Below, in pieces: positions 3,704 through 45,442 of a DNA stretch of 64,000 bases. The translations under genes and the position numbers were made by a program. Every line of letters begins with the position of its first letter. Position 1 is the first letter of the stretch. The notes beneath the pieces are model-generated. The model worked only from the letters and a program-made list of their open reading frames with translations, ran no database searches and was not told the DNA's origin. This DNA is from Barthelona sp. PCE (taxonomy: Eukaryota), in NCBI GenBank assembly GCA_040285745.1, contig JAUFOR010000008.1, positions 744,001 to 808,000 on the forward strand, given 5' to 3'.

Positions 3704-3779
3704 CAACAGCCAATACTTCAACTTTTTAATGTGTATCTGGAACTTCAATTTTTACTTATTTTTTCTCCTGTTATCACAC

Positions 3780-23025: not shown

Positions 23026-24111
23026 ATGCCTGCGAAGTTACTGGTACTTCCTGGTCTCCCTACTGCTAGACCTCGAGCGGATCAAATTAAAAATGCAATA
23101 GGAGAATTACACGATGTTTTTTTTCTTCCACTACCAAATCTTGCTAAAACCACACTTAATAAGCTCCTTGCTATTGTAGATAGTCTCGAAAAGTCAGACA
23201 TGGCATTTAGATCATTATCACATCGAATGGAAAAGCATTTATATGATGTGTATCAGCGCAGAGGCAGCAAATTGCTTCCAATTAATTTAGGACAAACTAT
23301 GCTCCGTGAATTGCAGCAGTCAGTTATCAGCAATAACCCCCATATTCAACATTTTCCCACAACTGAATTTTGTCAGAGCGCTCTTGAAGCTCTCCATCGC
23401 GAATTTACGCAGATAGATAGCACGTTCCGTGATAGTCAGTCAGAATTACAGAGCCAACAAGCATCGTGCACAACTTTAAAGCGTCAGCTTGAAGGTAATC
23501 TACTCTTTAGGAGTTTATATGATTATATGGAGCCAGATGACGTTGTAGAAAGTGAATTCTTGACCACAAAGATGGTGGTCGTATCATTATCTCAAGAAGA
23601 AGAATTTCTTGCAACCTACTCAACAGGACTTGAGTGGATTGTTCCAGATAGCGCTAAAGAGGTGACACGCGACAAGAGTTCTGTTGTTTTCCGTGTTGTT
23701 CTCTTCAAAAAAATCGAAAAAGAGTTCGGAATCCACTTCCAACGTCTTGGTCATCGTGTACGAAATACAGAGAAGTCAAGCATTCGTGACACACATGATA
23801 AACTCGTTGAGGAGTGTGAATCTCTCCAAAAGGAGTTTGATGAGTACTGTTCAACCACATATCCTTACCTTCTCCGTTTGTGGATGAATCTTATGCTTCT
23901 TAGAGGATGGGTTGAGGGGCAGTGTCGCTTCGAACAAACAGAAGATTCAGTGCCCTTGTGTGTTATCTATATCATGAACGAGTCCAAATATGACGGAAAG
24001 GTTGTCAAAGCTCTTGAAGAGTACTTAAGCAATGAATTTGCAACCGAGCATATGGAGAGTGTTTTCGACAATGTTGTGTATTTTTCTTTCGATATGTATG
24101 GTGGAGAATAA
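23026..24111 (+). CDS. VMA5: V-type ATPase subunit C (divergent)
   Basis: GNLLFRSL…ESEFLTT..VVV…IVPDSA…VVLFKK motifs; W..L..LR..VE…RF near the C-terminus. Confidence 0.8.
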   Translation: MPAKLLVLPGLPTARPRADQIKNAIGELHDVFFLPLPNLAKTTLNKLLAIVDSLEKSDMAFRSLSHRMEKHLYDVYQRRGSKLLPINLGQTMLRELQQSVISNNPHIQHFPTTEFCQSALEALHREFTQIDSTFRDSQSELQSQQASCTTLKRQLEGNLLFRSLYDYMEPDDVVESEFLTTKMVVVSLSQEEEFLATYSTGLEWIVPDSAKEVTRDKSSVVFRVVLFKKIEKEFGIHFQRLGHRVRNTEKSSIRDTHDKLVEECESLQKEFDEYCSTTYPYLLRLWMNLMLLRGWVEGQCRFEQTEDSVPLCVIYIMNESKYDGKVVKALEEYLSNEFATEHMESVFDNVVYFSFDMYGGE

Positions 24112-24873
24112 ATTTAGATTTTTTTAGTAAATTTCCTTTAAGGTATATTCACTCATGTTGAAAGAAAATTTTTCTTCAGTAGTTACTTACCACTACTCAT
24201 TGCAATTTCCTTTCTTAAACTTCTTTCTTCAAATTCCTATTTTTCAACTTTCCAACTCATATATATGCATAATGAAATGAATAAGTAATAAAATGCTCTA
24301 GAAACAATTTTTGATGTTAAACATTTTTGAGTTAATCACGTTGTTATCGCTTTTTTTCATGTTTAACCATGCTTTTTGTGACAGCAAGTCATTTAATGTG
24401 AATAAAAACGATAAGAAATAATAAACAAAATTTCTTTCCTTTTTATTTAATCAAGTGCATGATTATTTGTGCTCTATTCTGTATATGTACAACTCTAACC
24501 TGACAATTAGTCCTGATCAACACACCATGATCAGCGTGTATTATGTGAATCACATCTGATGAGAGATGGTAACTAGAACTATAAATAATTTCAATGACAT
24601 GATTCAACCATTAAATGATGCACACTGGGAAAAGGTGAAAAACGATGAAAAGCAACTAAACAAGGAAATGAGAAGGAAAAAAAAGATAATGACTTCACAA
24701 GGGCTGAGTTCTCTCGGATACATGCATGAATAAGTTCCTAAGATCGAGGTCTCATAATTGAGTTCCCACCCCATAATAAAAAATAGTAAAAGAAATCCGG
24801 AATGTACATGAAGGTACGTAATTCGGATAGCACATCCATCATTCAACAAGCAAAATGCAATATCATCAAAAAA

Positions 24874-24945
24874 TGCATGTGGGAAGAATCGAACTCCCGG
24901 CCTCTGCGATGCGAGCGCAGCGCTATACCACTTAGCTACACACGC
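24874..24945 (-). tRNA. tRNA-Ala (CGC)
   Basis: Cloverleaf GCGTGTG/CACATGC with G3:U70; anticodon arm CTGCG-CTCGCAT-CGCAG; TTCGATT T-loop; followed by a T6 terminator. Confidence 0.95.
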
Positions 24946-25520
24946 TTTGTTAGTTTAACGGAAAATGTTATTCAATATTTGACATATATTATCTAATGTC
25001 GTATTTTTTTAGTCCGGCATTGAAAATAACACTACCACCGTTGTTAGTTTTAATTTTTGTATCCAAAAAAATGTAAATTAATTAAAAAAGAAAGAAAAAA
25101 AAACTTTTTTAAATTATTAGCATTTTACACTTTTAGTACTATATTCTTTATCAATCTCGTAAATAAAGCTGTAAATAAGCTTTAATATTATAAAATTACA
25201 ACAAAACGAATTTACTACTTTTTATAGGATTGGATTTTGTAAATTAAATGTTGGACAATGGTGTTTATCTATACATATGGTCTTTTACGCACAGCTAGAT
25301 TTAGATTATTTATCAACAAGGCCCAATCAATGAAGTTCGGATGCTTAATAATTAATCCACAAAAATATGTAATATTAACCAAAAGAAATAGTACTCAAAA
25401 TTCAATGGTCATCTTCCTCATACCTTCATTCGTGAGAATATTATATTATAAAATTATATCTCTGAAATATAAAAATGATGTTTTCTAAGCATACACATTC
25501 CAAGCACAATCCAATCTCCT

Positions 25521-25604
25521 TTTAGTTCGAAACTGTGTGCCATACAGGGTATGGTTCAGACTGAATTTGAAATAAAGCTTAACATGAAGAGAACGTTGAA
25601 ATTC
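25521..25604 (+). repeat. Left inverted repeat
   Basis: By hand alignment ~72/86 columns match the reverse complement of 29441-29523; perfect 24-bp core AAAGCTTAACATGAAGAGAACGTT at 25574-25597. Confidence 0.9.
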
Positions 25605-25643
25605 CAGTATGTAATTATATTTTCAAAGAATGCACAGTGAAGA

Positions 25644-28600
25644 ATGAATGTAAATGTATTTGCAATGATAAGCAGATGCAGTGAATCAATCAATCTACCA
25701 CTTGAAGCAATTACTGCAGTGGAAGAACAGCCACGAGAATATCAAAACAATTTGTATGTTGAGATTACATCCAAAAATGGAGGTCACACCCAGGTATCTC
25801 ACCGGTATACTGTCTCTGGTGGTATTTATGCAACGAATGCAAACTTTAAATCGGAGAAATATTGCATTTTCGCCCATGAAGTTTGTGTTGATCTCTACAA
25901 CAACGAAATCAGAGAATCTGGCTTCAAACTTGGTGATGGATGCTTGACAAAAGCTCAGGGTCAGATGTGTGGTTTAAACATATTCACAGGGAAAATTTGG
26001 TTACATCAGCTGAATTTAATGGAACAGGCAAGGATTATAAGATCTTTACGTACTGAAAGAAATCATATAATTAAAAGGAGCTTCCTTCCAGATGAATATA
26101 TTAACAGAGTTTTGTTGGATAACTATTCACAGGGAGAACTTGAGCGACAAAAATCGCCATACAAAAGCCATTCATCCAATCGACCCTTCATCAGCAGTTC
26201 ACAATACAAAAAGCTGTTTGATTCGGACGATTTCATAAGGAACGGGGCATGGTTGGAATGCACAGATTTAAAAACAATTACTGAATCATTATATGTTGAA
26301 AAATCAGGTATTTCACCTCTTAATGTGCATAAAATTGCTGTAATGCTTCCCAAAAACTTAGCCACGTATGAACCAATGGGTTCTAGGGCATACAACGTCA
26401 GAAAATTGAGCTTGAAAGAAATTGAAAGACGATATAACCTTTCCGTACAGAATGAATTCAAGAAATTCATTCAATATCACGATAAGGTGATACATCCATT
26501 CATTTTGAAAACGTTAATACATTCAATGAAAAAGCAAGCAGATTTTTTTAAAGTACCAACCGTCGGTAGCTTTCAGTATGACGCATCCAGTAATAAGTAC
26601 CAAACGTACATTATTAACTTTAGCGTTCCAAAAGATTTATCTATTTCGCTTAAGGAGGGCAGTATATTCGATGAGGACTTTCCCATGATCGATATTGATC
26701 ACAAATTTTGTACCTTGTCTGAGCATTTGAATAGCTTACGTGGTAAGACTATCGTTTTTGATATTGGTAATTGCGAATACACGAATATCGATGATCATAC
26801 CACCCCCAGTGACCAGTTGCCTGAAGGGCAGCGCTACTTTACGCATGTGAGGAAGGATTATGGCAAGCGAGCACAGGATGTTTCCTATCATATACTCTCA
26901 GCTTTCAAGCGCTATGGTGTTATTGATTCGTTCACAATCATCGAGAAAAAGTACAATAATTGTTGGAGATTACACGACTGTATAATCGATATGGGAGATA
27001 CTAAGCTCAAGATTGTTCTTGGAACTGACAATGGGTTACCTGAGCAGCTTGCCTGTCAGAAGATGGTGGATGCCTGTCTTTATTTTTCTCGTCAGCCATG
27101 TACCTGTCATGTTATGAACAAGGCTTTAGCCAAAACATGTGGTTTTGAGGCAATTGATACTTTAGCTGTAGCTGAAGCAGTTTTTGATAGCCTTTATGGT
27201 TTCATGAATACTCATTCAGATCAGCAGTGGCAGGATAGACTTTCAGACATCGGATCAATCCCTAATAGTATTGTCAAGAGGCTTTACAAGCAGCTTGAAG
27301 GCAAACAGTTATTCACTAATCGCTGTACAGCACGCTCCCCCCTGGTTAGGCTATCCTCTGTGGTGCAACTCAATAAGACCCATGAGTTGTTTGAGGATGT
27401 TCCAGATAATGCTTCGATTGAAGAAGTAGATGATGAGACATTCTCTAGTATTGTGTATGATACCAATGAGAATTTTAAGGATGAAGCGCTGCTCTTCATG
27501 TTTGCATATGTATCGTATTTTGAGTCATCATGTGTCGATTTTTTGAACCAGCATCAGAATTACAAATTTTTAGATATTCAAAAGTTTGTCAATAACATCG
27601 TTGGTTATGAGGCAAGGGGGAGATCTTCACAGAACAGGGAGCAGCCGTCATTTCAAGAAACAGTGCCCAACTACAGCAACTTTACCTACCATCTCACATT
27701 AACACCGTTATACGATTATGCCAAGCAGATACAGCAACAAAAGCAGTACTTGAAGACATTCGCTGGTATTCAGACCATTTTAAGTGCTGAACTCATGCAA
27801 TTAGGGTTAAAGTACCACTTATTGTTGTGTGACTTTAGAGATAGTAGTGTCCTTCAACATGTTCGATGGGGTTCAGTAGAGTCCATTTGCGATATCTTAT
27901 GCGGATCTCTGTACGTTGATATACCCTTGGGTGCGTTGGAACAAGCACTTGATGTTGAAATTCATGATGATGCATCAACAGACAGTATTTCTACCTCAAT
28001 AGTTTTAAATATTTCACATTTTGAACTCACAAAGAACTTTTTTTACGGCAGGTATGAGAATGACGATGAATCAATGTTGAAAATCAAGCGCATTTTATCT
28101 TCAACTGATAACACTTATGATTCCAATACACACTATCGTCACTTTCTAAGCCCTTTATACAAGGAGCCTCAAGGGTTTTCTTTGGAGCAAGAGATGTGGG
28201 AAATGTGCCGTGTATATCTGCGTGCTTTTCGTTGTATGGTGTTCGTGCAACAATTGTGCAGCGCCGAATCAACGTCTGTTTTGCAAGCTTATCATCACGT
28301 TGCAAAGTTGCTGTTCTATATCCTGAAGAACCGAAGTGATGCTGCAAGAGAGCACACAGAAACATTTTTGTACAAGTACCTCTCTGGTTTGTTCGAGTAT
28401 TTGCGCCATTATTTTTGCAAGTATCTCATAATGCCCGAACCATTGGCAGCATATCTGCTCTGCAGTGAAGAAGATGTGTGGGTTGAAACCATTTCTAATG
28501 AACATAGGAGTAGTTTTGCTGAAGAGTTGTATGACGAGTTTTTAAAAGCAAAGCTGAAGTATATCATAGCTCCTGATAACACTGAGCTTTCTGATAAAAG

Positions 28601-29297
28601 CTTTGAATTTGCACGTCTTAAAGGATTGATGATCTATTCATTTTTGCCAACAAAGTTCCAAGCGGCTGGGCCCGATTTCCCTTTTGCTAGTATTACAGTT
28701 TTACACACTAATTTTGAACGGGAGATAAGTAATGAGTTCAGGAATTTTGGATATTACAAAGGCTTGGTTGCCCATATCATTTCCATTCTCTGTTCCAATT
28801 TTGATGCATGTTTCTCTGCTTCCTGCGAAAGTCGGGAAAAGGGAATTGTACATCAAACCGTTGAAGAGAGATCAAATGATTCCCAATTTCTTATGATTGC
28901 TATAGTATCCCCAAGACGAAGAAGACTAGCCAGAGAATCGAGAACAGTTGACGGCACACCAACACGTATTCAGAGGACTGAGAGGAATAAGTATGATTTT
29001 TCCGATCAGGGTGTGCGTGAAACTGATATCCGTCTAGCGCTTGCCTATGGTCACACGAATCCAGCAGTGAAAGGTGTGGAAAAGATACGGGAATTAGTGC
29101 ATAAGTACAAAAACACTGTAGCAAGTAATGCTGGTATTGAACTTGGGTTTTCTAGATTTAAAAATTCTCATAGTGCACAGCAATCAAGAATTAAACCGCA
29201 ATTGCGGTATAGTTGGTACGTGTTCAATAATAGTACTGCAACGTCAGCAATTTCTATCGAGGATTTTAAAGCTCTAAGGTTCAGGAGTGAAGAATAA
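25644..29297 (+). CDS. 1217-aa orphan protein with candidate RNase H-fold (DDE) nuclease core at aa ~370-515
   Basis: Intact long ORF (start at 25644 or 25665). QDVSY…VIDSFT…LGTDNG…AVAEAVFDSL resembles IS3/rve integrase motifs; function is inferred only. Confidence 0.75.
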   Translation: MNVNVFAMISRCSESINLPLEAITAVEEQPREYQNNLYVEITSKNGGHTQVSHRYTVSGGIYATNANFKSEKYCIFAHEVCVDLYNNEIRESGFKLGDGCLTKAQGQMCGLNIFTGKIWLHQLNLMEQARIIRSLRTERNHIIKRSFLPDEYINRVLLDNYSQGELERQKSPYKSHSSNRPFISSSQYKKLFDSDDFIRNGAWLECTDLKTITESLYVEKSGISPLNVHKIAVMLPKNLATYEPMGSRAYNVRKLSLKEIERRYNLSVQNEFKKFIQYHDKVIHPFILKTLIHSMKKQADFFKVPTVGSFQYDASSNKYQTYIINFSVPKDLSISLKEGSIFDEDFPMIDIDHKFCTLSEHLNSLRGKTIVFDIGNCEYTNIDDHTTPSDQLPEGQRYFTHVRKDYGKRAQDVSYHILSAFKRYGVIDSFTIIEKKYNNCWRLHDCIIDMGDTKLKIVLGTDNGLPEQLACQKMVDACLYFSRQPCTCHVMNKALAKTCGFEAIDTLAVAEAVFDSLYGFMNTHSDQQWQDRLSDIGSIPNSIVKRLYKQLEGKQLFTNRCTARSPLVRLSSVVQLNKTHELFEDVPDNASIEEVDDETFSSIVYDTNENFKDEALLFMFAYVSYFESSCVDFLNQHQNYKFLDIQKFVNNIVGYEARGRSSQNREQPSFQETVPNYSNFTYHLTLTPLYDYAKQIQQQKQYLKTFAGIQTILSAELMQLGLKYHLLLCDFRDSSVLQHVRWGSVESICDILCGSLYVDIPLGALEQALDVEIHDDASTDSISTSIVLNISHFELTKNFFYGRYENDDESMLKIKRILSSTDNTYDSNTHYRHFLSPLYKEPQGFSLEQEMWEMCRVYLRAFRCMVFVQQLCSAESTSVLQAYHHVAKLLFYILKNRSDAAREHTETFLYKYLSGLFEYLRHYFCKYLIMPEPLAAYLLCSEEDVWVETISNEHRSSFAEELYDEFLKAKLKYIIAPDNTELSDKSFEFARLKGLMIYSFLPTKFQAAGPDFPFASITVLHTNFEREISNEFRNFGYYKGLVAHIISILCSNFDACFSASCESREKGIVHQTVEERSNDSQFLMIAIVSPRRRRLARESRTVDGTPTRIQRTERNKYDFSDQGVRETDIRLALAYGHTNPAVKGVEKIRELVHKYKNTVASNAGIELGFSRFKNSHSAQQSRIKPQLRYSWYVFNNSTATSAISIEDFKALRFRSEE

Positions 29298-29440
29298 CCA
29301 GAAAATGAGTAAGAAGTTCATTGTATTTATTTCGCTTTTACTGTACGTATTTTGGGATATTTGCATAGTACTCTAACCCTTTTAGGTCTTAAAATAAAAA
29401 ATATTGAACCACTTTGACCCACGAGTTTTCAAACCTCATT

Positions 29441-29523
29441 GAATTTTAACGTTCTCTTCATGTTAAGCTTTTATGTCAAAAGTCAGTCTGAAACACCCAG
29501 TATGCCAATAGTTTAGATCTAAA
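29441..29523 (-). repeat. Right inverted repeat
   Basis: Reverse complement of the left IR; perfect core at 29448-29471. Confidence 0.9.
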
Positions 29524-29917
29524 GAGCCACGGTCTTTTGAATGGTTCCTGTTTATTTAATGTTTTCCATATTTTTTTTCTTCTTTATCAAGGTAACAAAT
29601 AAAAACCTTCCTTTTTTTATGTATATTCAGACTTCAAATTCTGTCTGCTTCACGCTCAATATGGAATATATTTCAACCGATGCATCAACTATTCGCGTTT
29701 CCTAAATATCCATAAAACCAAATAAATAACACTGCCCACAAATCAATCCCTCAATTTCCCAAAAAAGGCTACAATAGTGGGTTAAAAATGGTAAGCATAT
29801 TCATTTCTAATATACACAATATTACACCCTACTCCACTGTCACATGATCCCCACACACATCATTAGGACTTACATAACTCGGCAGAATGCATGTTCAATT
29901 CTTTTTTAACCTTTACA

Positions 29918-30931
29918 ATGAGATTACAAGGTCTTTTTTTATTTCTAATACTTTCATCATCACTTTTATTGGGAAGAGCTACTATTTTGAGCGCAGAAGG
30001 TTGTACCAAACTCGTTCAAGCTCGAAACCCTAAATACACAAAGTATTGCAAGTACCCAGCCTACCGATCTCATTTAGGCCGTGCAGCTGATCGTTACTGT
30101 GGTGGTTTCATCACAGAGAAATGTTTAAAACGCATATTGAAGTCAAACGGAGGTTCATTGGATCGTGCTATTCCAAGAACTAATCGTATTAGCAATTCGA
30201 AGATTGCAATCATCGACAGCCACAAATATACGGAGGTTACAGCCGAAACAATTGATATTCCAGGACTAGGAGTTCCAACAGAGCAACAGCTACCGTCTCA
30301 TCCGAAGAGAGATCCTAAGATGCGTGGACAACCAGCAACAGTTCGCTTCGGCGCTGTGGGTCATCGTGCTACAGTTCTTAAGGGTGTTTTTGACCCCAAA
30401 ACAGGTCAATTCTGGATGGATTCAGTTTCTCGACCTCCAGTTCCTGTGTATTCAAACGTCCCTTTCAAGTTAACTGAGTTAAATCCCAAGAAGGGGTGTC
30501 AGAGTAAGAAGGGTGGCTTTTTCGGAAAGCTAATCATGTCTTGCAAGCCATGGGTCACTTCCTCAGAAAATCCTTCTGTAGACGTTTACATTCCCAACGA
30601 TGAAGAGTTCAAGACTTTTGCTGCTGGCTCCGTTTTTGAGCTGAAAATGCGCTCAGGAGATGTCAATCTTGTGTATAAAGATGATCATCTCATTAAGCAC
30701 AAGACAGTTCCCGGACGAGGAGGATTTTTTGCAAGATTCAAGTTGATTGCAATTCCTGCACACGTACAAATGTATCGTGTTGGCGGGTCGGGGATGTTAA
30801 AACATGGTGACATTGTTTCATTTTGCCGAGATGGTGTGAAAAAGATACAGCCTCAGAGAGGGTTTGCTTTTATGTTGAAAAAGCATTCTTCTGTTGAGTG
30901 TCCTCGCTTCAAATTATCAACTGAACACTAA
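29918..30931 (+). CDS. Secreted basic, Cys-containing protein, unknown function
   Basis: Signal peptide MRLQGLFLFLILSSSLLLGRA; K/R/G-rich; repeated GGFF motif. Confidence 0.7.
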   Translation: MRLQGLFLFLILSSSLLLGRATILSAEGCTKLVQARNPKYTKYCKYPAYRSHLGRAADRYCGGFITEKCLKRILKSNGGSLDRAIPRTNRISNSKIAIIDSHKYTEVTAETIDIPGLGVPTEQQLPSHPKRDPKMRGQPATVRFGAVGHRATVLKGVFDPKTGQFWMDSVSRPPVPVYSNVPFKLTELNPKKGCQSKKGGFFGKLIMSCKPWVTSSENPSVDVYIPNDEEFKTFAAGSVFELKMRSGDVNLVYKDDHLIKHKTVPGRGGFFARFKLIAIPAHVQMYRVGGSGMLKHGDIVSFCRDGVKKIQPQRGFAFMLKKHSSVECPRFKLSTEH

Positions 30932-31044
30932 TCATATCATTTCAGAAGTAAATATTATTCGTCTTCTTTAAACGGACAAGATAATTTCAGCATTTGCAAT
31001 TCAGTAATGAACCTGATTACATTTTTTATACCTCCTTTCAGATT

Positions 31045-33132
31045 ATGCCAAGAGTTTCTCAAAGAGAGGGCGTATTTTTAACTAAACGATACAGAGAAGA
31101 TGTGATAATGACCGTAAATGAAGCAGAAGGTAATATTGGATTTATCACAATCTCTGAGGATTTCATCACAAACAAAGGGTCCTTCCGCTCTATGCCAAAA
31201 TCAGAACACCGTTGTGCAGGAGTAATAGGGGGTAAAACGATTCTGGGACACAATTTTTTTTATTCTTTTACAATTACTCATAAAATCGATGATATTTGTA
31301 TGGTGAGGATATATTTTTGGTATATTTCTACAAGTGGGCCACATGAAATTTCTGAAACAGTAGAATTTGATGCTATTTTATCAAGTAGTAAGTGGCAGGA
31401 TTTTAAGCTGTTTTGCTATAGTCCTCAAACCTTTTTTCTCGTTAAAAATAACACGCTTCAGGTGGAATATGCTCAAAAAGAGGGAAATAAGGTGGAAATT
31501 GAGTTAAATGATTTCGAGCTCATCAGTCAGACTACTTTTTCCAGAGCTCTTCCCGTTTTTTCATATGAAGAGGGTGGAATGTTCGGTTTGTACCGGATGT
31601 ATTGCTATTTAGATGATAATCTACTGCTACAGCCATTAAACAGTAATCATTCCGATCAAATTGATTACTTTATTGATGTTATCAACGCAGATTGTTTGCT
31701 GCACGTCACTGAGAATGAAGAGGAGTACGGATTAATCAAGCTGTTTGTACTCAGTGATGGTCCTAATCACATTGATCTATTTCAAGTTTTTCCATCACTA
31801 AAATCATGCTTATCAAAACTTGACTTCAACAGCTGTCACACTATGATCATATATGAGTTGACTCAGGAAGTATTTGAGTTTGCTCTTGTTTTTAAAGGTA
31901 ATTTGATGTATTGTCATGCAAACACTAGTGGAACAACTGAACTCGTTCAGTTTTCACACTGTTTACGTGGAAACAAACTTTTTTTGATGTCTAGCGAGCC
32001 AAATGCCTTCCAGAAGATGCAATCATTCTGTTTTAAAGCAAATTTGCCTGATATTTTTGGGATAGAGATGGTCGAGGTAGATTCGTTTTGCCTTAATCAT
32101 TACGTCTATCGAAGTGATAAAAACATATTCAATGATTTCACTCTCAATCACAGTTTTTGCCAGTACGCCTCCAATAATCTTTTAGTCTTCAAAGCACATA
32201 ACTACACTGAAAAAACAAAAACAGCCACCGTAATATTTGATACTGCAAACAAAACAACGCGAATTATGGACCAAATGGATAAATACTACTCGGTTAGATG
32301 CAACCCGATCATTGGTAATCGCTATATCCTACTGTTAGCAAAAGATACTCAGGGAAATAGGGAAATTACTTACGTGATTGACTTTTTGAATGATGAGATA
32401 AATCCGTTAATTGCAATTCCTGGTCAAATTTTTACCCATGCCTTTGATGAGAAAAGGGGTCTCATTTGTAGTCTACAACATAGTTTTGATAATGATGTTA
32501 TATATTTGTTCAATGTTGAAGGCGTGTTACTGGATAAAATTCGTGTTGAAGGCGTCTACAACAGTAATACAATGTTTATTGTTAATGATGTTATTCTTCT
32601 TCAAAATTCACGATCAATTATGACGGTTTCATTCGATGAACAATTCAAAATGACTGTTGAAGAAAACCACAGATCGTCTCCCTTTTTCTGTTATAATCCA
32701 TTCAAAAAGGAGCTGTGGGGCAGAGATGGTGATGATATTACTCGTGCGTATCCTGTCGAAAAAAATATCGTCTTAAATTCTGCCAATGATGTTATTGATG
32801 TTAACAGTTATCATTTTAATGACGGAAAGCTGGTATTTTTCAGTGAAAAATTAATTGTCACAGACCTTAATCCACCTTTTGTATATCAGTATTGTGATAG
32901 AAGCAAAACATTAGAGTTTGTGGAGCAATTGAGTCACAGATTCGGTGAAAAACTTCTGTTGATCGAACCATCGATTGAAGAATGTGCTTTGGTGCAAGTT
33001 TTCAGCAAACATAATCCGTTACGCTTTGTTGTTGAGAAAAGAAGCGATGTTGAAGTTGAAACATCGGTTTTTGGATTTTTGGATATGATGAAAACCTTTG
33101 ATGTGATAATTGTCAATGTAGATTTCGATTAA
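31045..33132 (+). CDS. Lineage-specific multigene family protein (MPR-start, beta-rich)
   Basis: First ATG gives MPRVSQ; shares ID..NADC, NH.DL…FP.LK and LTQ.VF motifs with 40363-42540. Confidence 0.75.
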   Translation: MPRVSQREGVFLTKRYREDVIMTVNEAEGNIGFITISEDFITNKGSFRSMPKSEHRCAGVIGGKTILGHNFFYSFTITHKIDDICMVRIYFWYISTSGPHEISETVEFDAILSSSKWQDFKLFCYSPQTFFLVKNNTLQVEYAQKEGNKVEIELNDFELISQTTFSRALPVFSYEEGGMFGLYRMYCYLDDNLLLQPLNSNHSDQIDYFIDVINADCLLHVTENEEEYGLIKLFVLSDGPNHIDLFQVFPSLKSCLSKLDFNSCHTMIIYELTQEVFEFALVFKGNLMYCHANTSGTTELVQFSHCLRGNKLFLMSSEPNAFQKMQSFCFKANLPDIFGIEMVEVDSFCLNHYVYRSDKNIFNDFTLNHSFCQYASNNLLVFKAHNYTEKTKTATVIFDTANKTTRIMDQMDKYYSVRCNPIIGNRYILLLAKDTQGNREITYVIDFLNDEINPLIAIPGQIFTHAFDEKRGLICSLQHSFDNDVIYLFNVEGVLLDKIRVEGVYNSNTMFIVNDVILLQNSRSIMTVSFDEQFKMTVEENHRSSPFFCYNPFKKELWGRDGDDITRAYPVEKNIVLNSANDVIDVNSYHFNDGKLVFFSEKLIVTDLNPPFVYQYCDRSKTLEFVEQLSHRFGEKLLLIEPSIEECALVQVFSKHNPLRFVVEKRSDVEVETSVFGFLDMMKTFDVIIVNVDFD

Positions 33133-33537: not shown

Positions 33538-33667
33538 TGATTTTCTTCCAGAGTCTCATCCATGTTAACGGGTAATAAAGGAAAGTAATCAGATTCTTTA
33601 CAGAGATCTAAGTTCGGATATGGTGCCGCATACGGGCTACCTTCTTCAGAGTTTGGAAGTCCATACA
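33538..33667 (-). repeat. Split direct repeat B2 (130 bp), element 3' end
   Basis: Identical to 33815-33944. Confidence 0.95.
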
Positions 33668-33704
33668 TCTGAAAAATAGTAGTATTTCAATTACTAAATA
33701 ATAC

Positions 33705-33814
33705 AATAAAATAAATAGGAAACCTTAAAATGGTGAGAAATTGAAATACACCCGCATACGTTCTATTCCATTCTCTGTTCAAAATCAATTACAGGATCAT
33801 CCTGATCAGGACCA
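33705..33814 (-). repeat. Split direct repeat A2 (110 bp)
   Basis: Identical to 39514-39623; abuts B1. Confidence 0.95.
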
Positions 33815-36800
33815 TGATTTTCTTCCAGAGTCTCATCCATGTTAACGGGTAATAAAGGAAAGTAATCAGATTCTTTACAGAGATCTAAGTTCGGATATGG
33901 TGCCGCATACGGGCTACCTTCTTCAGAGTTTGGAAGTCCATACAACCATGCATAGAAACTTTCATACTCTATCTCCGAACTATCAATTCTCTGTCGAATC
34001 TCTGGCTCCTCAAAGGAGGGCTTCACATTAGTGAGGTAATACTCATGTGCTGAATTCGCTTGTTTCGACCACCTACCATGAATAGAACTATCGTCAACTG
34101 ACATATTTTGATCTACAATATATCCTGACCTGAGGGAATGTGGCGTCAACCTTGCATACGTGTCAGCATCGTATGGCAATACACCAATGTCCACTAGATG
34201 TTGCTGCACCTTTTTCATCGCTCCACTTATCTTTATGACCATTTTATCATATTTCACTCCGGGATGGCTTTCATCATATGTCATGTTGCCGGTATGAGGG
34301 TCGATCTTGTGGGCTTTGAAGATTGTCATTCCATCTTCGAGCTGTTGCTCCGCCCAGCATAAATATGCTACTAACCAATCGAGACCAGGTGTGTTAGAGA
34401 TATCCTCTATGGGGATATTCCACATCTTATTATCTCGGTTCGTTTTGGTATTACGGAAAACAACCGAGAACTCCTTCTTGTTTAGCACTTTAACTTCGTT
34501 GAACCTCATATCTTTGAGGTCCATGGTCCGAGCAGCAGTCAGGTAAGCTAACGCCATGTAAGCTAGCTGGGTGAGTAGCATTAAGAAAATACTTCTTCTA
34601 CTCTCCCGTGGTACTGTTTCGAGTTCCGTTTTGGTTGAAGTGATGAGTTCGACCATGACTAATTTGACTATGTCAGCAGTAGCTGCCATCTTGTACTTTG
34701 TGTCTTTGTCTCGAATAGTGGAATGGTAATAGGTAATACATCTTCTACCTATTGCCTGTTTCTGTTCGTCTGTCAATTTTTGTGAAAATTGGGGGTACGT
34801 GTACAGGAAGGCGTCAAACAGAATTCTCATTCTTGAGAAGTACGACCGATGAGTCGATCGCTTCCTAGAGGCGACTTCTACCCCTTTCTCTCCGTATTTG
34901 TGGAAGAACCAGTCATTCCAATGTTTGAACTCAGTACATTCTACCATCAGTTCGTTACAACCATGGATGCCCGTTTTCTTCTTAATATAATCACGAATCT
35001 CATTAAACATGTTTATCATACTCCTACGTGTCTTCAAGTCGTACATCTTCTTTAACGTGTCCATGACTGCATCGCTATGCATAAGAAGGGGACCACGGTT
35101 CACCTTTTCTTTAACCGGTGTTGCTGGAGGCTTTGATATCGTCAACTTTTTCGGGTCAATAATCATCTTTATCGATCCGTCATCTAATATCGAGTGTTCA
35201 ACTCTGGACCACAATGAGGTGAAAGGTACCTTTGACGGTAAGAGTACCTCGATAATCACATCGTGCTGTATGGCCTTAGTGACCAAAACTTCAATAGCTG
35301 TGTCTAATGCAACGTTGAGCGCAAAGACGCGTGAGTTTTGTCCTTCGTGACGAATGCTTAAATACGAGTGTGGTAAGTCTTGTGTGGCGCTCTCAATCTT
35401 TGACATGACCGGGAGTTCGACTTGTTCACCATCAAACGTCGTGGCAGTAATCTTTGGCGCTAGGTCGTCAAGTAATACCTGTAGATCACTGTCTAGTGTT
35501 CCCTTCAAACTAGGCTGTTCAGTGAGTACGTAGGCATTTTCAGTCTGTGAGTATTCTGGAAGCAGCATAGGTTCTGCCGTGGAGTCTGCTCTGCCGTAAA
35601 AGGCTCCCATGTGGAACATTAAGCCAGATTGTCCTTTGGATGACTGGTGTGTCTGCTTGTAAAAGGGGGCATGCATCACTGGGATGCTCACTGTCGGAGG
35701 TACAGTTGGTCGCAGTTTTATGGTCTTTGCAGGCAGCATCGACTTTATCTGGTACATCTTCTCCCTTTCGCCGATGGCTATACCTCGCGACAGATAATCT
35801 GCAGCAATGTTGAGTTTCGTCTGGACATACATAATGTTGATTCGGATGTTAAACTCATCAGCTTTTTCAAAGATCATCCTAATGACCTCGTTCAGCTCCT
35901 TATTCTTCGATTTTCCTGCTCTCAGGCCATATACAACTGCTGAGTTGTCATTACAGAGGAGAAAGTCCGAGTCCGGATTTTTCTCAGCCAACTTACTGAA
36001 CATAGAGTAAAGTGCTACAACCTCAGCTTCCATGATATGATGTGACTCTTTGCAGATTTGCAAGTCAAGATCACGCATTAACGTACCTGGATCCTCGACG
36101 GATCGATTGAGCTCATTTCTCAATTTCTCTCTCTTAAACGCAAAACCTCCACGGCCTTCAACTTTCTCGTTTAGGCATGCATCAGTGGCGATAATAACGT
36201 CATTAGCACACGCGTTGATGCGTCTCTGCTTATTTTCTTTGAGTAATTCTTTAGCTGCTCTGATCGCGAGTTTGTAGTCATCAATCAAAGATTCGGGGAT
36301 CAATCGGGACCCAAGTCCCTTGGATGTAAATAGAGGGACAGTGTCCTGGGAAATATTGATGTTTAAAATTTTTCTCGTGGAATCACGAATAATTTCTTCT
36401 ATCTGATCTGCATGACGTTTCAATCTAGGGCATGCGAACGATTTGGATGCTAATTTTCCCGCTAAACTCTTGGCTTGCAACAATGTGACCCCATCCTCAC
36501 TGTATAAGTTATCCAAGTGTTCTTTGATGGCTATAACCATCGCATCACTCTTTTTCTTTGCGATTCTGACCTTGGTGGTGAGGAGATCACTAGTGTCAAA
36601 CTCAAAGCCCAGCCAATCAATTATCTTGGTGGGTTCTACGATGGATTTCTCTCTGTTGATCTTGATTCCTAGGAGGAAACAAAGGGCCTTTATCGCTCTT
36701 ACAGTCCTTCTGACCATCTCAATGTCGTTGTGATAAATGAGAAAATCATCTACGTACACCTCAACGCATCCACCATACTTGTTCACAATTGAAGCTATCA

Positions 36801-38319
36801 TCTTGGATACTGATATCGAGATGTTACCAGCAATGGAGGACCCAAACGGAGTCTTCTTGAAGCGATAGTAATCCCCTTTGTGTTTAAAGGCAAAATAGTT
36901 GGATAATTCATCTTCCATCTTATTGTGGTAAAACCATGAAGATAGATCGATACTGGCCATATAAGCTCTAGGAGGGATCAGTTTCATGATCCTCTCGCCA
37001 GGAAGAGCAACTGGTAACATTAAACTTGCGTCATGGGCCTCAGGGGCATTCATGATAACTCGTACGTCACCATTATCTTTAGGGATCGCAAACACATCAT
37101 TAACAACTGCTATCTCGTCAATCTGATCCTCTTCTACCTTCTCCACGAAGGGAGCTATGGTGTCAAACGCCTCGTCTGCTACAGCATCATCGAATGTCTT
37201 TGGGTCTCTGCGTAAGTATTGTTCCTTAACTTTTTGTGCTAATTCTTCGTGCATCCAATTCTCTACTGATACTTCGGTAATACGTTTGCAAACTGCTGTG
37301 GGGTTGTTGATTTCAAGTTCTACCAATATTTGCCGTAGTATCTGACGTTGTCCATCGTGCCTCAAGAAGTGTTCTGAGTCATCAATGAACCAATTCTTGT
37401 CGTCTTTGAGGTCTAACCCCTGTTGTGCAATGTATGTATCCTCACATTTACCAGGCCATGCCTCTACAATCCAATTGGTTTCGCTATCGTGTGTCGCATT
37501 GACCAATCCATTCACAAAAACTCCTATTTTGTTCATATTATCTCTGGGCTTCAAGTATGGTTGGCTCAATTCGCGATCATAACCGTATTCTTCCACCTCA
37601 GTTCGACGTGGTGGAATGATATCATCAATTTCTTGTGGTTGGATATTTATCTCAACCCTACGGTTCTCTTGTGCTATGTGCCGCTGGACTTGTATGTTCT
37701 CATCGGCTAGCTGTTTCGTCTCAAGGTGTTGCTCATCCATCTTTTGGCTAACACCTTGTATATCGCTTTTAACACTTTCATTCTTCTCACCCACTTTTTG
37801 AATTTCTTTCTCGAGCACGTTCATTTTCTGCTCAAGCTTCTGGTGGGACTTTTCTACACTCTTCAAGAGGATCTTCTCATTGTGGTGCTTAATAGTTTCA
37901 GCGATCTTCTTCTGTGATTCCAGTATTTCATCACATACTCCAACTGCGCATTCATATATGTCATCGCGTTGGGCCTTCATATCCAGTTTAAGAACTTTAG
38001 CGTGCTTCTTAAACATCTTGATATCTTGTTCAAGGGACGTGTGAGCATCTTTGTGTCTGATGTCACCGTGTTTCGCAACTGTGCTCTTGTCATCAGTGCT
38101 CTCCTTCTTCTCCTTTGATTTGGTGTTGCCATTGTTGTCACCTTCAGGAGGTATTTCAAACGTTGTGGGTGTATTGTCCTCATCTTCGTTTGCTTCATTA
38201 ATAATGGGGGTGCGTGGCTCCTTGAGCTCTTGAACGCCTTCCTCACTTATTTTCTCGCGTGTAACTCGTATCTTGTATCCGTTACGTATCCACGTTCCAC
38301 TGGGGGGATCTGGAGGCAT
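33763..38319 (-). CDS. Retrotransposon ORF2: coiled coil + reverse transcriptase + RNase H + tyrosine recombinase
   Basis: RT: FAIPK..GDVRVI, SIDLSSWFYH, PFG, YVDDFLI, WLGF. RNase H: ATDAC, EAEVVAL, NDNSAVV, NIAADYLSR. YR: TAARTMD, NTKT, HSLRSG, HGRW, HEYY. Confidence 0.95.
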   Translation of the reverse strand: MPPDPPSGTWIRNGYKIRVTREKISEEGVQELKEPRTPIINEANEDEDNTPTTFEIPPEGDNNGNTKSKEKKESTDDKSTVAKHGDIRHKDAHTSLEQDIKMFKKHAKVLKLDMKAQRDDIYECAVGVCDEILESQKKIAETIKHHNEKILLKSVEKSHQKLEQKMNVLEKEIQKVGEKNESVKSDIQGVSQKMDEQHLETKQLADENIQVQRHIAQENRRVEINIQPQEIDDIIPPRRTEVEEYGYDRELSQPYLKPRDNMNKIGVFVNGLVNATHDSETNWIVEAWPGKCEDTYIAQQGLDLKDDKNWFIDDSEHFLRHDGQRQILRQILVELEINNPTAVCKRITEVSVENWMHEELAQKVKEQYLRRDPKTFDDAVADEAFDTIAPFVEKVEEDQIDEIAVVNDVFAIPKDNGDVRVIMNAPEAHDASLMLPVALPGERIMKLIPPRAYMASIDLSSWFYHNKMEDELSNYFAFKHKGDYYRFKKTPFGSSIAGNISISVSKMIASIVNKYGGCVEVYVDDFLIYHNDIEMVRRTVRAIKALCFLLGIKINREKSIVEPTKIIDWLGFEFDTSDLLTTKVRIAKKKSDAMVIAIKEHLDNLYSEDGVTLLQAKSLAGKLASKSFACPRLKRHADQIEEIIRDSTRKILNINISQDTVPLFTSKGLGSRLIPESLIDDYKLAIRAAKELLKENKQRRINACANDVIIATDACLNEKVEGRGGFAFKREKLRNELNRSVEDPGTLMRDLDLQICKESHHIMEAEVVALYSMFSKLAEKNPDSDFLLCNDNSAVVYGLRAGKSKNKELNEVIRMIFEKADEFNIRINIMYVQTKLNIAADYLSRGIAIGEREKMYQIKSMLPAKTIKLRPTVPPTVSIPVMHAPFYKQTHQSSKGQSGLMFHMGAFYGRADSTAEPMLLPEYSQTENAYVLTEQPSLKGTLDSDLQVLLDDLAPKITATTFDGEQVELPVMSKIESATQDLPHSYLSIRHEGQNSRVFALNVALDTAIEVLVTKAIQHDVIIEVLLPSKVPFTSLWSRVEHSILDDGSIKMIIDPKKLTISKPPATPVKEKVNRGPLLMHSDAVMDTLKKMYDLKTRRSMINMFNEIRDYIKKKTGIHGCNELMVECTEFKHWNDWFFHKYGEKGVEVASRKRSTHRSYFSRMRILFDAFLYTYPQFSQKLTDEQKQAIGRRCITYYHSTIRDKDTKYKMAATADIVKLVMVELITSTKTELETVPRESRRSIFLMLLTQLAYMALAYLTAARTMDLKDMRFNEVKVLNKKEFSVVFRNTKTNRDNKMWNIPIEDISNTPGLDWLVAYLCWAEQQLEDGMTIFKAHKIDPHTGNMTYDESHPGVKYDKMVIKISGAMKKVQQHLVDIGVLPYDADTYARLTPHSLRSGYIVDQNMSVDDSSIHGRWSKQANSAHEYYLTNVKPSFEEPEIRQRIDSSEIEYESFYAWLYGLPNSEEGSPYAAPYPNLDLCKESDYFPLLPVNMDETLEENHGPDQDDPVIDFEQRME
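33815..33944 (-). repeat. Split direct repeat B1 (130 bp), inside the ORF2 3' end
   Basis: Identical to 33538-33667. Confidence 0.95.
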
Positions 38320-38469
38320 AGTAGGTATTTCAATATTATGTTTCTTAACGGTCGTTGATTCGATAGCATTGGTGAGACTTGTTAGATGCTCACATAATTG
38401 CCCAAATTGAGTTGATAAATTCCCTGAGTTTACAAATGATGGGGATTCATCATCAACGACCGAACCTTT

Positions 38470-39489
38470 TCAATTCTTGTCGGTATCAGACCTCTTCTGA
38501 TAACTGTTGTTACGATTGTTCTTCGTACGCTTGTTCCTGTACGACTGTTCTTGTTTAAGGAAAAGCCTTTGTCTTTCAACACGCATTGTAAAACCCAATT
38601 TTGTGAGGAGAGTGTTCAGAATTTCCTCTCCACTTCTTGGGTCTTTCCAAACACCTTCAATGCCTGAAAACGTGTGGAACACATCATCTAGCCTTTCCAT
38701 AGGGAGTCCATGGTCCGACACCTGTTTTATCAACCATTTGGACAAGCCAAATGCAGACATCTTACCCACTACAACAGCCATCTTAATCACTTGATCACTT
38801 GTGAGTTTCTTAACACCAGCATCAACATCTAATTTGGATATGGCTCTAGCTGCCGTGTTCAGCAGATTTGCTGAGAAAGGAGCATCCTTCATGCCTAGTT
38901 CCATCAGTCTGTCATACTCAGACTCTTCGACCTCTCCAAAATCATTATTCAACCTGAGAAATTCGTGCTTAGTCAATCTAGGTCCCTCTCGTTGGATCAC
39001 AATTTCTCGCTTTCCAGCCTGTTTCTCTTGATTATCAAGACCCTCATATAAGTTCATCATGACGTTGATGTCATTTCTATTGGCTGTTCTGTAACATACG
39101 CTCTGCCCGTCACATTCTAACTTGACTCTCATGCTCAATATGGATTTCACAAAGAAGCACTGAGGACAATCTTTCGTCTCCTCATCATCACTGTTTACGA
39201 AACAAGACACGTCCAGAAAATCCATTAACTCTTCAAGACTCACTTTGGTGACCATCTCATCGCACTCACCCTTACCTATCAGGCCTGATAGCAGGGACCT
39301 CAAGCAAGCTGACCAAAAAATATTGCGAGTTAGTTCTGTAGTAAAAATCGCATACGAATGGGACTCAACTTCATCGATTACCATGTCATCTTGGAATGAC
39401 GTGCTCACATTGTACCTAAACTTACGGGACGCTTTTGTTTTCACCATTGTTACATATTCATCAACTGTTGCTTTCTCTACTGTTGTCAT
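38470..39489 (-). CDS. Retrotransposon ORF1 (gag-like by position)
   Basis: First ATG downstream of A1 (MTTVEK); basic N/R/K-rich C-terminus; ends at a TGA in frame with ORF2. Confidence 0.8.
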   Translation of the reverse strand: MTTVEKATVDEYVTMVKTKASRKFRYNVSTSFQDDMVIDEVESHSYAIFTTELTRNIFWSACLRSLLSGLIGKGECDEMVTKVSLEELMDFLDVSCFVNSDDEETKDCPQCFFVKSILSMRVKLECDGQSVCYRTANRNDINVMMNLYEGLDNQEKQAGKREIVIQREGPRLTKHEFLRLNNDFGEVEESEYDRLMELGMKDAPFSANLLNTAARAISKLDVDAGVKKLTSDQVIKMAVVVGKMSAFGLSKWLIKQVSDHGLPMERLDDVFHTFSGIEGVWKDPRSGEEILNTLLTKLGFTMRVERQRLFLKQEQSYRNKRTKNNRNNSYQKRSDTDKN

Positions 39490-39513
39490 TTGTGTTTCTG
39501 TACTAGTATACTT

Positions 39514-39623
39514 AATAAAATAAATAGGAAACCTTAAAATGGTGAGAAATTGAAATACACCCGCATACGTTCTATTCCATTCTCTGTTCAAAATCAATTA
39601 CAGGATCATCCTGATCAGGACCA
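39514..39623 (-). repeat. Split direct repeat A1 (110 bp), element 5' end
   Basis: Identical to 33705-33814. Confidence 0.95.
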
Positions 39624-39767
39624 GGGTCTCCAACGATTGATCACACGACTATTTTCGATATACTTAACCCTTAATTACATGAAATGGAGAAGAAAAACTG
39701 TGCCGGTAATTGTGAATAACCAGCACTATACTTTACACTTTGGTTGCAACTTTTCTGTCAAAATGAT

Positions 39768-39841
39768 GCCTCTTTAGCTCAGTTTGGTAGAGCGACGGAC
39801 TCTTAATCCGTCGGTCGGGGGTTCGATCCCCTCAAGGGGTA
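39768..39841 (+). tRNA. tRNA-Lys (CTT)
   Basis: GCCTCTT/AAGGGGT acceptor; GCTC…GAGC D arm; ACGGA-CTCTTAA-TCCGT anticodon arm; GTTCGATC; T-run downstream. Confidence 0.95.
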
Positions 39842-39919
39842 TATTTTTTGTGTGTATCAATATTATACTACACATGAATTTATATTTTTTTTACCTCTGA
39901 GTAAAATTCCGTAAACTAA

Positions 39920-39992
39920 TTCTCCATCGTTTAGTGGTTTATGATCCCAGATTCTCACTCTGGAGACCGGGGTTCGATTCCCCGTGGGGAAG
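39920..39992 (+). tRNA. tRNA-Glu (CTC)
   Basis: TTCTCCA/TGGGGAA acceptor; CCAGA-TTCTCAC-TCTGG anticodon arm; CGGGG-TTCGATT-CCCCG T arm; T5 terminator. Confidence 0.92.
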
Positions 39993-40362: not shown

Positions 40363-42540
40363 TTATAAAAATTCTGCTTCATTATTTGTCTGTGAATGAT
40401 AGTTGGGCATGTGATATTCAACAATGGACGCTTCAGCGAGGAATGAGGGAAGATGGAACGTTTCAACTGTGGGATTCGTTGATTCTGGGTCTTGCTCAAC
40501 GTTAAATGTTTTCAACACCATTGTCTTGGTTTCTTCTTCGTATTTCATAACCTGAACTACATTATTTGGTAGATTTAGGTTGTTTAAAAAATCTCCATTA
40601 AATGTCAAGTTGCTATTTGAAAAAAAATGCGTTTCAATAGTACCATTAACAATGGTTACCTTATATATACCCTGATCCACACTAATATACGAGTCACCTA
40701 CGAAGCTGATGAAATTGTGGCCCTGTATTCGTTCACATTCATCTTCAAATTCATCATTTGTGTACTTATAAATTAGAACAGGTTCCAAAAAGTTGCCTGT
40801 TTCCCAATTAAGACAGTGCAATTGATGCACTTCGGATTCCACACCGTATTTATGTACAACAAAAAGCTGGTGGTCGGCTGTATCTACTAATGGACGGGGG
40901 TTATAGTTAACATTCGCAACATCATTATCATGGTAAAAGATGAAATGCTTCTGAACTTCTACATCATTTTCATCGATCAAAAATTGAAAAAAATTGATTG
41001 ACTCAGAACAAAAAATGCACGCAGAGTTTCCAACGACTGAATAAGAACAATCATTGAAGTATTCATCCTGTGGAAGCTCCAAAATTCTTGTATCTCCCAG
41101 ATAACCATGGGTTGTACCGTTATCATTGTAGCTGACATAAAAAGGTAACCCAGCAATAATGCCCACATTGTTTAATCCAATTTGACAGGAAGTTATTATT
41201 GGTTTTGATTCTGAACCCTCCCAGTGAATTTTAACAACTTCTGAAGACCCATGTCTATCATAACGCTGTGCAAGCATAAAGAAATGCTCTTCCCCAACTG
41301 GGTGAAACGATAGCTTGTTGTAACTTCTTTGAATCCTACCATTACTATTCATAACACTCTTATGTATAACGATTTTCTTTTCTTTGAAGTAAAAGAAACA
41401 TTGCATCCCACTATAATCATTAAAATGTGCTATTCCATCGAACATTACACTTAAAGGGCAAATATTGTCCAAGCGCATCACTTCATTACTGACACTTCTG
41501 TACTTCAACGGACCATAAACACCATCATAATTATTAGCGCCATACAAACAACAAAGTTCATCATGAAAGGAAATGGTTAAGTCAATATGCTTTATGTTGT
41601 CACAAACGAGATCATAGCAACCTAAACGACCAGTTGATGTCTTTAATTCCCCGTTTTCAATATGAACAACAATAAAAATCGAGTTATTTCTTCTGAGGAG
41701 TGCCGAAAATACATTTTGCGTTAATGTGAACAAGATAAACCCAGAACAGCAGTTTGTTTTTAAGTCTTTCAGTTGCGGGAATCTTTCTAATAAGTCAACA
41801 TGGTTCCGTTGACTGTCAATTATGATCAATTCTTCAAATCCAGTTCCAAATGTGGCAGAACAAACACAATCAGCATTAAAACAATCAATACATCTGTTGA
41901 ATTCTTCCAACTGTACGATATTTGGCTCGTGAGACTCGTCCATATCATCAACGCAGAAATTATAGTGGTATATCGAAAAATCACCTTCATTATTGGATAG
42001 TAAAGTATAGTTTGGCGACATTAAAGAAGTTGGATAATCACAATATTCTCCAAGGCATCTATTCTTTTCAGTTAAAATGTTGAAAATGTAACACTTAGTT
42101 AACGACCTATGATTTTCATTATTCTCTCCAATAAAGAATAAAAGATGATTGCTATCCAATGGAAGAATCCGGCTTGCTAAATACCTGTCTTGGTTGTTTA
42201 TCTCAAAAGGCAATGCCACTTTTCTGATCGTATGATCATCACTGGTGATTTCTTCGAAGAAAAGGATGTCAATATCGGTCAGAATATTGTCAGTAAAATT
42301 TTGTTCAAAGACCATATAACCTCCTGTTCCAGCCTTTTGCTTAAAAGAGTATTGAATAGGTTGGCAAGTTTCTTCAAAATATTCACAAAAATCTTTGCCC
42401 TTAACAGCACTTTCTATGAGACTGATACCTGTTTTTTCTCTTGAATTAATCAATCGAAAACCAGACTTATAAAAAAAAATCCTCCCCTCCGGATATGACT
42501 TAATTATTAAGTCATCTTCAAATTTGCGAACCCTGGGCAT
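40363..42540 (-). CDS. Lineage-specific multigene family protein (MPR-start, beta-rich)
   Basis: Likely start MPRVRK; shares motifs with 31045-33132. Confidence 0.75.
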   Translation of the reverse strand: MPRVRKFEDDLIIKSYPEGRIFFYKSGFRLINSREKTGISLIESAVKGKDFCEYFEETCQPIQYSFKQKAGTGGYMVFEQNFTDNILTDIDILFFEEITSDDHTIRKVALPFEINNQDRYLASRILPLDSNHLLFFIGENNENHRSLTKCYIFNILTEKNRCLGEYCDYPTSLMSPNYTLLSNNEGDFSIYHYNFCVDDMDESHEPNIVQLEEFNRCIDCFNADCVCSATFGTGFEELIIIDSQRNHVDLLERFPQLKDLKTNCCSGFILFTLTQNVFSALLRRNNSIFIVVHIENGELKTSTGRLGCYDLVCDNIKHIDLTISFHDELCCLYGANNYDGVYGPLKYRSVSNEVMRLDNICPLSVMFDGIAHFNDYSGMQCFFYFKEKKIVIHKSVMNSNGRIQRSYNKLSFHPVGEEHFFMLAQRYDRHGSSEVVKIHWEGSESKPIITSCQIGLNNVGIIAGLPFYVSYNDNGTTHGYLGDTRILELPQDEYFNDCSYSVVGNSACIFCSESINFFQFLIDENDVEVQKHFIFYHDNDVANVNYNPRPLVDTADHQLFVVHKYGVESEVHQLHCLNWETGNFLEPVLIYKYTNDEFEDECERIQGHNFISFVGDSYISVDQGIYKVTIVNGTIETHFFSNSNLTFNGDFLNNLNLPNNVVQVMKYEEETKTMVLKTFNVEQDPESTNPTVETFHLPSFLAEASIVEYHMPNYHSQTNNEAEFL

Positions 42541-45382: not shown

Positions 45383-45442
45383 CAAAAGGCAATTCTTCTG
45401 AGAAAGGGATAGTTTGCAAAAAAGCAGCGTAATAATTTTTAT

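Follow-up and report, generated by a model that had tools for sequence, protein, structure and literature searches.

Locus and intact gene

The stretch of DNA analysed here, called the window, comprises 64,000 nucleotides of the Barthelona sp. PCE genome (assembly GCA_040285745.1, contig JAUFOR010000008.1, positions 744,001 to 808,000 of the forward strand) and carries two copies of a long gene, the second of which is intact and is bracketed by inverted repeats of about 85 bp. The encoded protein, its relatives and the repeats were analysed together. The protein is, with good confidence, related to the transposases of the hAT superfamily, and the gene probably codes for a hAT-like transposase that has diverged strongly and belongs to a dispersed family, in part decayed and undergoing gene conversion, as judged from sequence comparison. 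This family is so far known from one metamonad genome, that of Barthelona sp. PCE. The features of the intact gene are given below in window coordinates, with residues numbered in its protein of 1217 amino acids (aa).

25644-29297, plus strand: gene copy 2, intact open reading frame (ORF) of 1217 aa, candidate hAT-like transposase
26736-27128, plus strand: candidate first half of the catalytic core, about aa 365-495; DUF659 matches of relatives fall at the homologous place
26760-26762, 27027-27029 and 27099-27110, plus strand: D373, D462 (in TDNG) and C486-x-x-H489, invariant residues
28998-29243, plus strand: C-terminal region resembling the hAT domain, about aa 1119-1200
29139-29141, plus strand: E1166, which together with A1160-S-N1162, F1169-S1170 and W1191 forms the C-terminal invariants of the family alignments

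The ESM Atlas record of this protein begins at Met8 (25665), and P0013, a protein of 1210 aa from the window's own protein cluster, agrees with that start. The protein gave no Pfam match at E<=0.01 and no match to PDB sequences at E<=10, and to this extent the initial annotation of the locus was right in calling the gene an orphan; within its own genome it is not one, since 17 related gene models are present there.

Protein family

The family was collected from 1.84 billion representative proteins, among which HMMER, run exhaustively, returned six clusters at E<=0.001 (all of them at E<=1e-10), and by cluster look-ups and one further search. It comprises 17 gene models, the window's own three counted, lying on contigs of six different lengths; the 14 named ones are all recorded as 'hypothetical protein' of Barthelona sp. 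PCE, and the copies other than those of the window are known from protein records only. Three subfamilies are present, with identity to the query (the protein of gene copy 2) of 82-100% in its own subfamily and of 31-43% in the other two.

The coverage map of the family contains seven full-length models (1202-1251 aa), copy 1 of the window in two pieces, five models truncated at the 5′ end and one internal fragment. In the remaining two, P0005 (269 aa) and P0006 (160 aa), an N-terminal piece is joined straight to the C-terminal ~120 aa, so that they apparently have the shape of internal-deletion derivatives, which are typical of cut-and-paste elements. In all, splitting, truncation or internal deletion is seen in 10 of the 17 gene models.

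The search for relatives in other collections gave no confirmed match among 192 pattern matches in the JGI metagenome contigs, 252 in the GTDB genomes and 87 in the IMG/VR viral contigs. Word-indexed protein searches returned family members only (1, 3 and 1 matches, the first being the copy of the window itself), and the last of these searches missed known members and is therefore uninformative.

Conserved residues and protein identity

Conservation was read from an alignment of six long members (A6), which have 34-43% identity to the query outside the query's own subfamily. All six retain D373 (in FDI), D462 (in TDNG) and the pair C486 and H489 (in PCxCH), and equally E1166, F1169 and S1170 (in ASNxGxExFS) and W1191. 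The spacing in the query is 89 residues from D373 to D462, 27 from D462 to H489 and 704 from D462 to E1166, the last residue being placed 51 residues from the C-terminus. The C486-T-C-H489 sequence thus forms, in each of the six members, a CX2H motif shortly after the second D, as is found in hAT transposases, and E1166 is the likely third carboxylate of a putative catalytic site. The stretch ASNxGxExFS, as read in the alignments, resembles 'S-x-x-x-E-R-x-F-S' in the Pfam consensus of the hAT domain.

Another core had been proposed in the initial annotation, either of the IS3/rve type (D412, D462, E511) or of RuvC type (D373, E434, D505). In the six long members D412 and E434 are as invariant as D373 and D462, but E511 reads E/E/D/Y/Q/Q and D505 reads D/D/E/E/P/P, and no rve or RuvC family was matched by any of the 17 members at E<=10. 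That both gene copies keep these residues is no argument for such a core, given a DNA identity of 99% between them. What survives of that proposal is its general idea of a DDE-type, RNase-H-like transposase gene between inverted repeats, from a transposon family so far undescribed, with D373 and D462 invariant, and not its specific assignment of the core residues.

Published descriptions of hAT enzymes, as far as given in the passages available from two papers, provide the layout for comparison, namely a DDE triad plus CX2H with the E about 40 residues from the C-terminus (PMC4890040, PMC4763223). Tgf2 has D228, D295 and E648 in a protein of 686 aa, plus a CX2H motif (PMC4890040); the active site of Hermes includes a CXXH motif of which H268 is part, and a C-terminal hAT domain of ~50 aa is described as a hallmark of the family (PMC4763223). 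The family described here shares with the hAT superfamily (hobo, Ac, Tam3; Hermes, Tol2/Tgf2) a candidate D, D, CxxH, E signature, a large insertion separating the second D from the E, inverted repeats around the transposase gene and members that look internally deleted, besides weak matches to DUF659 and an ESM neighbourhood of PF05699 and ZBED RNase-like clusters.

DUF659 (PF04937) is the sole Pfam family that recurs, being matched by 6 of the 17 members with a best E of 0.0047. The three matches listed individually have 12.7-16.1 bits (E 0.0091-0.11), which is far below the gathering threshold; they span profile positions 81-146 of 152 and, in the three proteins, fall at equivalent places over the TDNG to CxCH block.

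In the ESM Atlas search with the whole protein, eight of the ten listed neighbour clusters are hAT, ZBED RNase-like or DUF659 clusters with scores of 0.84-0.86, and in the ninth row DUF659 and the hAT dimerisation domain co-occur in the same protein clusters; scores below 0.9 in this atlas are leads only, and a third of shuffled proteins also receive ten out of ten matches of one family. The search with residues 1095-1217, which was made after the ASNxGxExFS motif had been noticed, gave 27 of 30 neighbours in PF05699 (Dimer_Tnp_hAT) clusters with a top score of 0.91, on a scale that carries no calibration for parts of proteins and on which uniform lists can also arise by chance. The DUF659 matches, the neighbours of the whole protein and those of the C-terminus are each weak signals but convergent, and the superfamily to which they point is hAT.

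Inverted repeats

Four copies of the repeat motif are present in the window.

25516-25606, plus strand: left arm L2, ~85-90 bp (nhmmer E 9.7e-26)
29439-29527, minus strand: right arm R2 (nhmmer E 4.7e-21)
3639-3707, minus strand: motif copy L1, upstream of gene copy 1 (nhmmer E 4.6e-17)
29633-29678, minus strand: partial fourth motif copy, outer half only (nhmmer E 5e-4 with the three-copy profile)

The inner edge of L2 is located 39 nt before the ATG at 25644 and 60 nt before Met8, and R2 begins 143 nt past the stop codon of gene copy 2. The core arms (25574-25604 and 29441-29471) are 31 nt long and 97% complementary with a perfect core of 24 nt, and the extended pair (25521-25604 and 29523-29441) has 83.7% identity over 86 columns (blastn E 3e-14; 72 of 86 positions identical on re-alignment). 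This pair is among only four non-self matches in the comparison of the 64 kb with itself. Repeats of ~84 bp with a 24-nt core, at about 40 bp before the start and 143 after the stop, had been reported in the initial annotation together with a homologous repeat before the other gene copy, and all of these were recovered, the last as L1. Identity of L1 is 45 of 57 positions (79%) with L2 and 50 of 69 with R2, and its orientation relative to gene copy 1 is the same as that of L2 relative to gene copy 2. The partial copy is oriented as R2 and lies ~155 bp beyond it.

A 21-nt core pattern (16 specified bases, up to 2 mismatches permitted) has three matches in the window, at 3640-3660 (minus), 25574-25594 (plus) and 29451-29471 (minus), none of them with a mismatch, against 0.07 expected; none of 100 shuffles reached three. 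The inverted repeat is far beyond chance. The three long motif copies stop resembling one another at about the same outer point, and the three-copy profile found nothing elsewhere in the 64-kb window better than E 0.76, so that the motif is no general promoter motif within these 64 kb, contrary to one outcome that the initial annotation had allowed for, a motif common at unrelated promoters. The k-mer count revealed no array of short subterminal repeats but AT-rich words only, and the termini, with one complete copy to judge from, are provisional.

The motif was also considered as an RNA gene and rejected as such: region 25300-25700 has no Rfam match at E<=1, the whole-window matches at gathering threshold being three tRNAs only, and folding z-scores of the three motif copies on both strands (-0.67 to +1.68) indicate no stable structure.

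Inverted repeats around a transposase-like gene are the classic layout of a transposon, and the chances are about even that the ~85-bp repeats are the ends of the element or the relics of such ends.

Gene copy 1 and proposed gene conversion

1-3619, minus strand: gene copy 1, running off the window edge 27 nt short of its stop

Positions 1-3597 of the window are the reverse complement of 29270-25663 with 99.06% identity. Between the two gene copies there are 21 substitutions, none of them beyond nt 1685 of the coding sequence; 15 fall at codon positions 1-2. One 12-nt indel and one extra homopolymer base complete the list, and apart from the extra base the last 1.94 kb of the comparison are identical. 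The only difference that breaks the frame is this homopolymer, A8 in copy 1 (1227-1234) and T7 in copy 2 (28038-28044), and because of it copy 1 falls into two ORFs, one of 801 aa (annotated as 792) and one of 417 aa (annotated as 406). The frameshift could be a true pseudogenising mutation or an error of the long-read assembly.

The differences are clustered at ~26508-26680 (aa 289-345), where nine substitutions and the 12-nt indel are found. At about aa 289-345 the residues by which copy 1 departs from copy 2 are those of the family member P0009; upstream of there, it is copy 2 that matches P0009. This mosaic suggests that three or more copies of the family have undergone ectopic gene conversion with one another. 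Together with the differences between copies 1 and 2, it is counted in favour of a transposon-like evolution. The high identity of copies 1 and 2 ends abruptly at the start codon. Retroposition of an mRNA was considered for this coding-only identity and was rejected, as homology of the upstream motif persists at a common position in the two copies.

Weighing of the hAT-like reading

Several findings weigh against the hAT-like reading and are gathered here, in addition to the limits of the ESM scores given above. With regard to profiles, all DUF659 matches are far under the gathering score of 34.7 bits and the query itself has no such match; in HMMER at E<=10, not one of the 17 members matched PF05699 (IPR008906); no Pfam hAT model reaches its threshold in any of the 17; and the family profiles run against PDB sequences matched no hAT structure. 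The top two rows of the whole-protein ESM Atlas search (0.87) are without a hAT family, and two of the ten best matches share a family with the best one. With regard to structure, the AlphaFold2 model of aa 18-1217 has a mean pLDDT (predicted local distance difference test) of 34.3, and the model of aa 280-560 one of 59.6. For the latter model the best Foldseek match to the PDB has E 0.34, with none at E<=0.001, and the best VIA-align match (Z 5.2 over 66 residues) is an unrelated designed protein; its order of strands is not obviously that of an RNase H fold, and no hAT or RNase H chain is among the structural matches listed, a non-listing that does not exclude one.

The comparison with known hAT elements is unfavourable in further points. 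The protein has 1217 aa, as against ~600-800 aa in hAT proteins, and the repeat has ~85 bp at 84% identity, as against terminal inverted repeats (TIRs) of 11-17 bp, the reference range for the protein being that given in passages of PMC4890040. The second D and the E are 353 residues apart in Tgf2 and 704 here, about twice as far. A BED finger and an 8-bp target site duplication (TSD) belong to hAT elements, and neither was detected here: none of the 17 members matched a Pfam zinc-finger family at E<=10, the family alignment has no conserved Cys/His pattern in its first 250 aa, and the TSD scan of both flanks of gene copy 2 only, which looked for an 8-bp duplication (up to 1 mismatch) adjoining an 11-bp TIR (up to 2 mismatches), gave no match, with 0-1 in each of 30 shuffles. 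The flanks at the repeat boundaries are also unrelated when read by eye. An old insertion could have lost its TSD. The initial annotation had called mobility unproven, and the TSD scan leaves it so.

The copies themselves speak against a recent jump of the whole repeat-bounded unit, because L1 and L2 agree at 45 of 57 positions as compared with 99% for the coding sequence and the identity breaks off sharply at the start codon. In each gene copy the motif precedes the ATG by a similarly short distance, which also fits a promoter, and a small divergent ORF starts only ~74 bp from L1. Finally, P0005 and P0006 could be artefacts of gene models with predicted introns in place of genomic deletions. 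The element is not filed as a member of hAT because the TSD and the BED finger were not found and no curated model reaches its threshold.

Proposed mechanism and alternative explanations

With the hAT enzymes as the analogy, the protein would bind the repeat-bearing ends, and a metal site made of D373, D462 and E1166, aided by C486-x-x-H489, would nick the DNA; hairpins would be made on the flanking DNA, and the excised element would insert elsewhere. Ectopic gene conversion, together with faulty gap repair, may later have made copies uniform or truncated them. What the analysis shows is the repeats, the family with its three subfamilies, the invariant residues and the members that are truncated or apparently internally deleted; the fold, the catalysis, the use of the repeats as substrate of the transposase and any present-day mobility are inferred.

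Among the alternatives, the one that survives best, although unlikely, is a domesticated host gene family of hAT origin, in which hAT-like nucleases or DNA binders were kept for a cellular function. The ~85-bp motif would then be a promoter or 5′ regulatory element, the downstream inverted copies would be relics or a second regulatory site, and the gene copies would be homogenised by gene conversion. The same orientation and similar short distance of the motif upstream of the ATG in both copies are in its favour, as are the high identity that ends exactly at the coding sequence, the negative TSD scan and the long intact ORFs in three subfamilies with 31-43% identity to the query and invariant putative catalytic residues. 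It is also favoured by the very compact genome of the relatives (10.2 Mb with 4.46% repeats, in the passages available from PMC11316075) and by the precedent of Kat1, a long protein with residues numbered beyond 900 (so in the passages of PMC4763223 available). Kat1 of Kluyveromyces lactis is a domesticated hAT protein which, as described there, resembles the present one in being a long hAT-type protein with catalytic residues and CXXH; it acts on inverted repeats, and the candidate here is bracketed by such repeats. Kat1 is, however, a single-copy host gene with a BED finger, whereas here there is a family of 17 models with decayed copies and no BED finger. The split, truncated or internally deleted state of 10 of the 17 models, the frameshift of copy 1 and the near-neutral look of the copy 1/copy 2 substitutions (15 of 21 at codon positions 1-2) speak against this explanation, and a promoter leaves the inverted copy just past the stop codon unexplained.

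It is very unlikely that the genes form a lineage-specific multigene family unrelated to transposases, with the hAT-like signals arising by chance or convergence and the repeat being duplicated regulatory or structural DNA. This explanation would account for the unmet curated Pfam thresholds, for the lack of any PDB sequence match or fold match and for ESM scores mostly below 0.9. It does not account well for three separate kinds of weak evidence which point to one superfamily, for the correct N-to-C order of the parts (a DUF659-like core and then a hAT C-terminal domain) or for the invariance of D, D, CxxH and E across the subfamilies.

A non-hAT transposon family with an IS3/rve or RuvC-like core is highly improbable, since, although D373, D412, E434 and D462 are invariant and a strand-helix-strand at ~369-437 in the model of aa 280-560 could put E434 at the end of a strand (for the RuvC-like core), the proposed third residues E511 and D505 are not conserved, no such profile is matched, the TDNG...CxCH block aligns with DUF659 and not with rve, and the only common ground is that acidic residues are generally to be expected on a fold of RNase-H type.

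Window context

The window belongs to a eukaryotic chromosome that is poor in introns. Single long ORFs code for Rpb1, SHMT, lipoate-protein ligase, glutamate-cysteine ligase, Rpb3, a cyclin, a RUN/Rubicon-homology protein and V-ATPase subunit C. The Rpb1 ORF (4150-9114, minus strand) ends, as read from its translation, in a Ser/Pro/Tyr-rich tail with loose YSPT-like repeats and no regular heptads. Between L1 and this ORF lies the small divergent ORF mentioned above (3781-4049, plus strand), of coiled-coil-like sequence, with its start ~74 bp from the motif; it would have an intergenic region of less than 200 bp in common with gene copy 1.

A tRNA-Ala (CGC) gene is placed at 24874-24945 (minus strand), ~570 bp upstream of L2, within an AT-rich spacer of 1.5 kb (G+C fraction 0.317 in the 24001-26000 bin). 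On the other side of the intact gene, the ORF 29891-30931 opens with a hydrophobic stretch resembling a signal peptide; this ORF and those at 30994-33132, 40363-42588 and 43538-45499 (346-741 aa) are without a Pfam match.

A retroelement occupies 33538-39623, with an ORF of 1518 aa on the minus strand (33763-38319) that carries an RVT_1 reverse-transcriptase domain (E 1.9e-13). Its direct repeats are 100% identical, one of 130 bp (33538-33667 and 33815-33944) and one of 110 bp (33705-33814 and 39514-39623), and it directly adjoins the genes for tRNA-Lys (39767-39842) and tRNA-Glu (39920-39992).

Significance

In the passages of its genome paper that were available, the Barthelona sp. PCE genome has 10.2 Mb with 4.46% repeats and is called the smallest currently known for a free-living eukaryote (PMC11316075). 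No paper on barthelonid transposons was found in the searchable literature, and among the papers retrieved on hAT, transposase and Metamonada none is on barthelonids by title or abstract. The text passages of the genome paper do not mention the family, those on transposons being about other species or cited software (PMC11316075); a repeat library in its supplements could already list the family.

In its furthest form, which we regard as doubtful, the family would be the founding lineage of a deep, superfamily-level, hAT-related branch of eukaryotic cut-and-paste transposons, with a doubled insertion domain, a non-BED DNA-binding N-terminus, terminal repeats of ~85 bp and insertion without an 8-bp duplication, still or very recently active and undergoing gene conversion.

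If the hAT-like identification is true, a hAT-like lineage which curated profiles miss would be added from a deep-branching metamonad group, and a compact genome of 10.2 Mb would still carry at least seven full-length transposase genes of 3.6 kb. With its D-to-E gap of 704 residues and no BED finger, the family would be a natural case for the limits to which the hAT catalytic scaffold can be expanded, and 17 'hypothetical proteins' would become one named family in the annotation of this genome.

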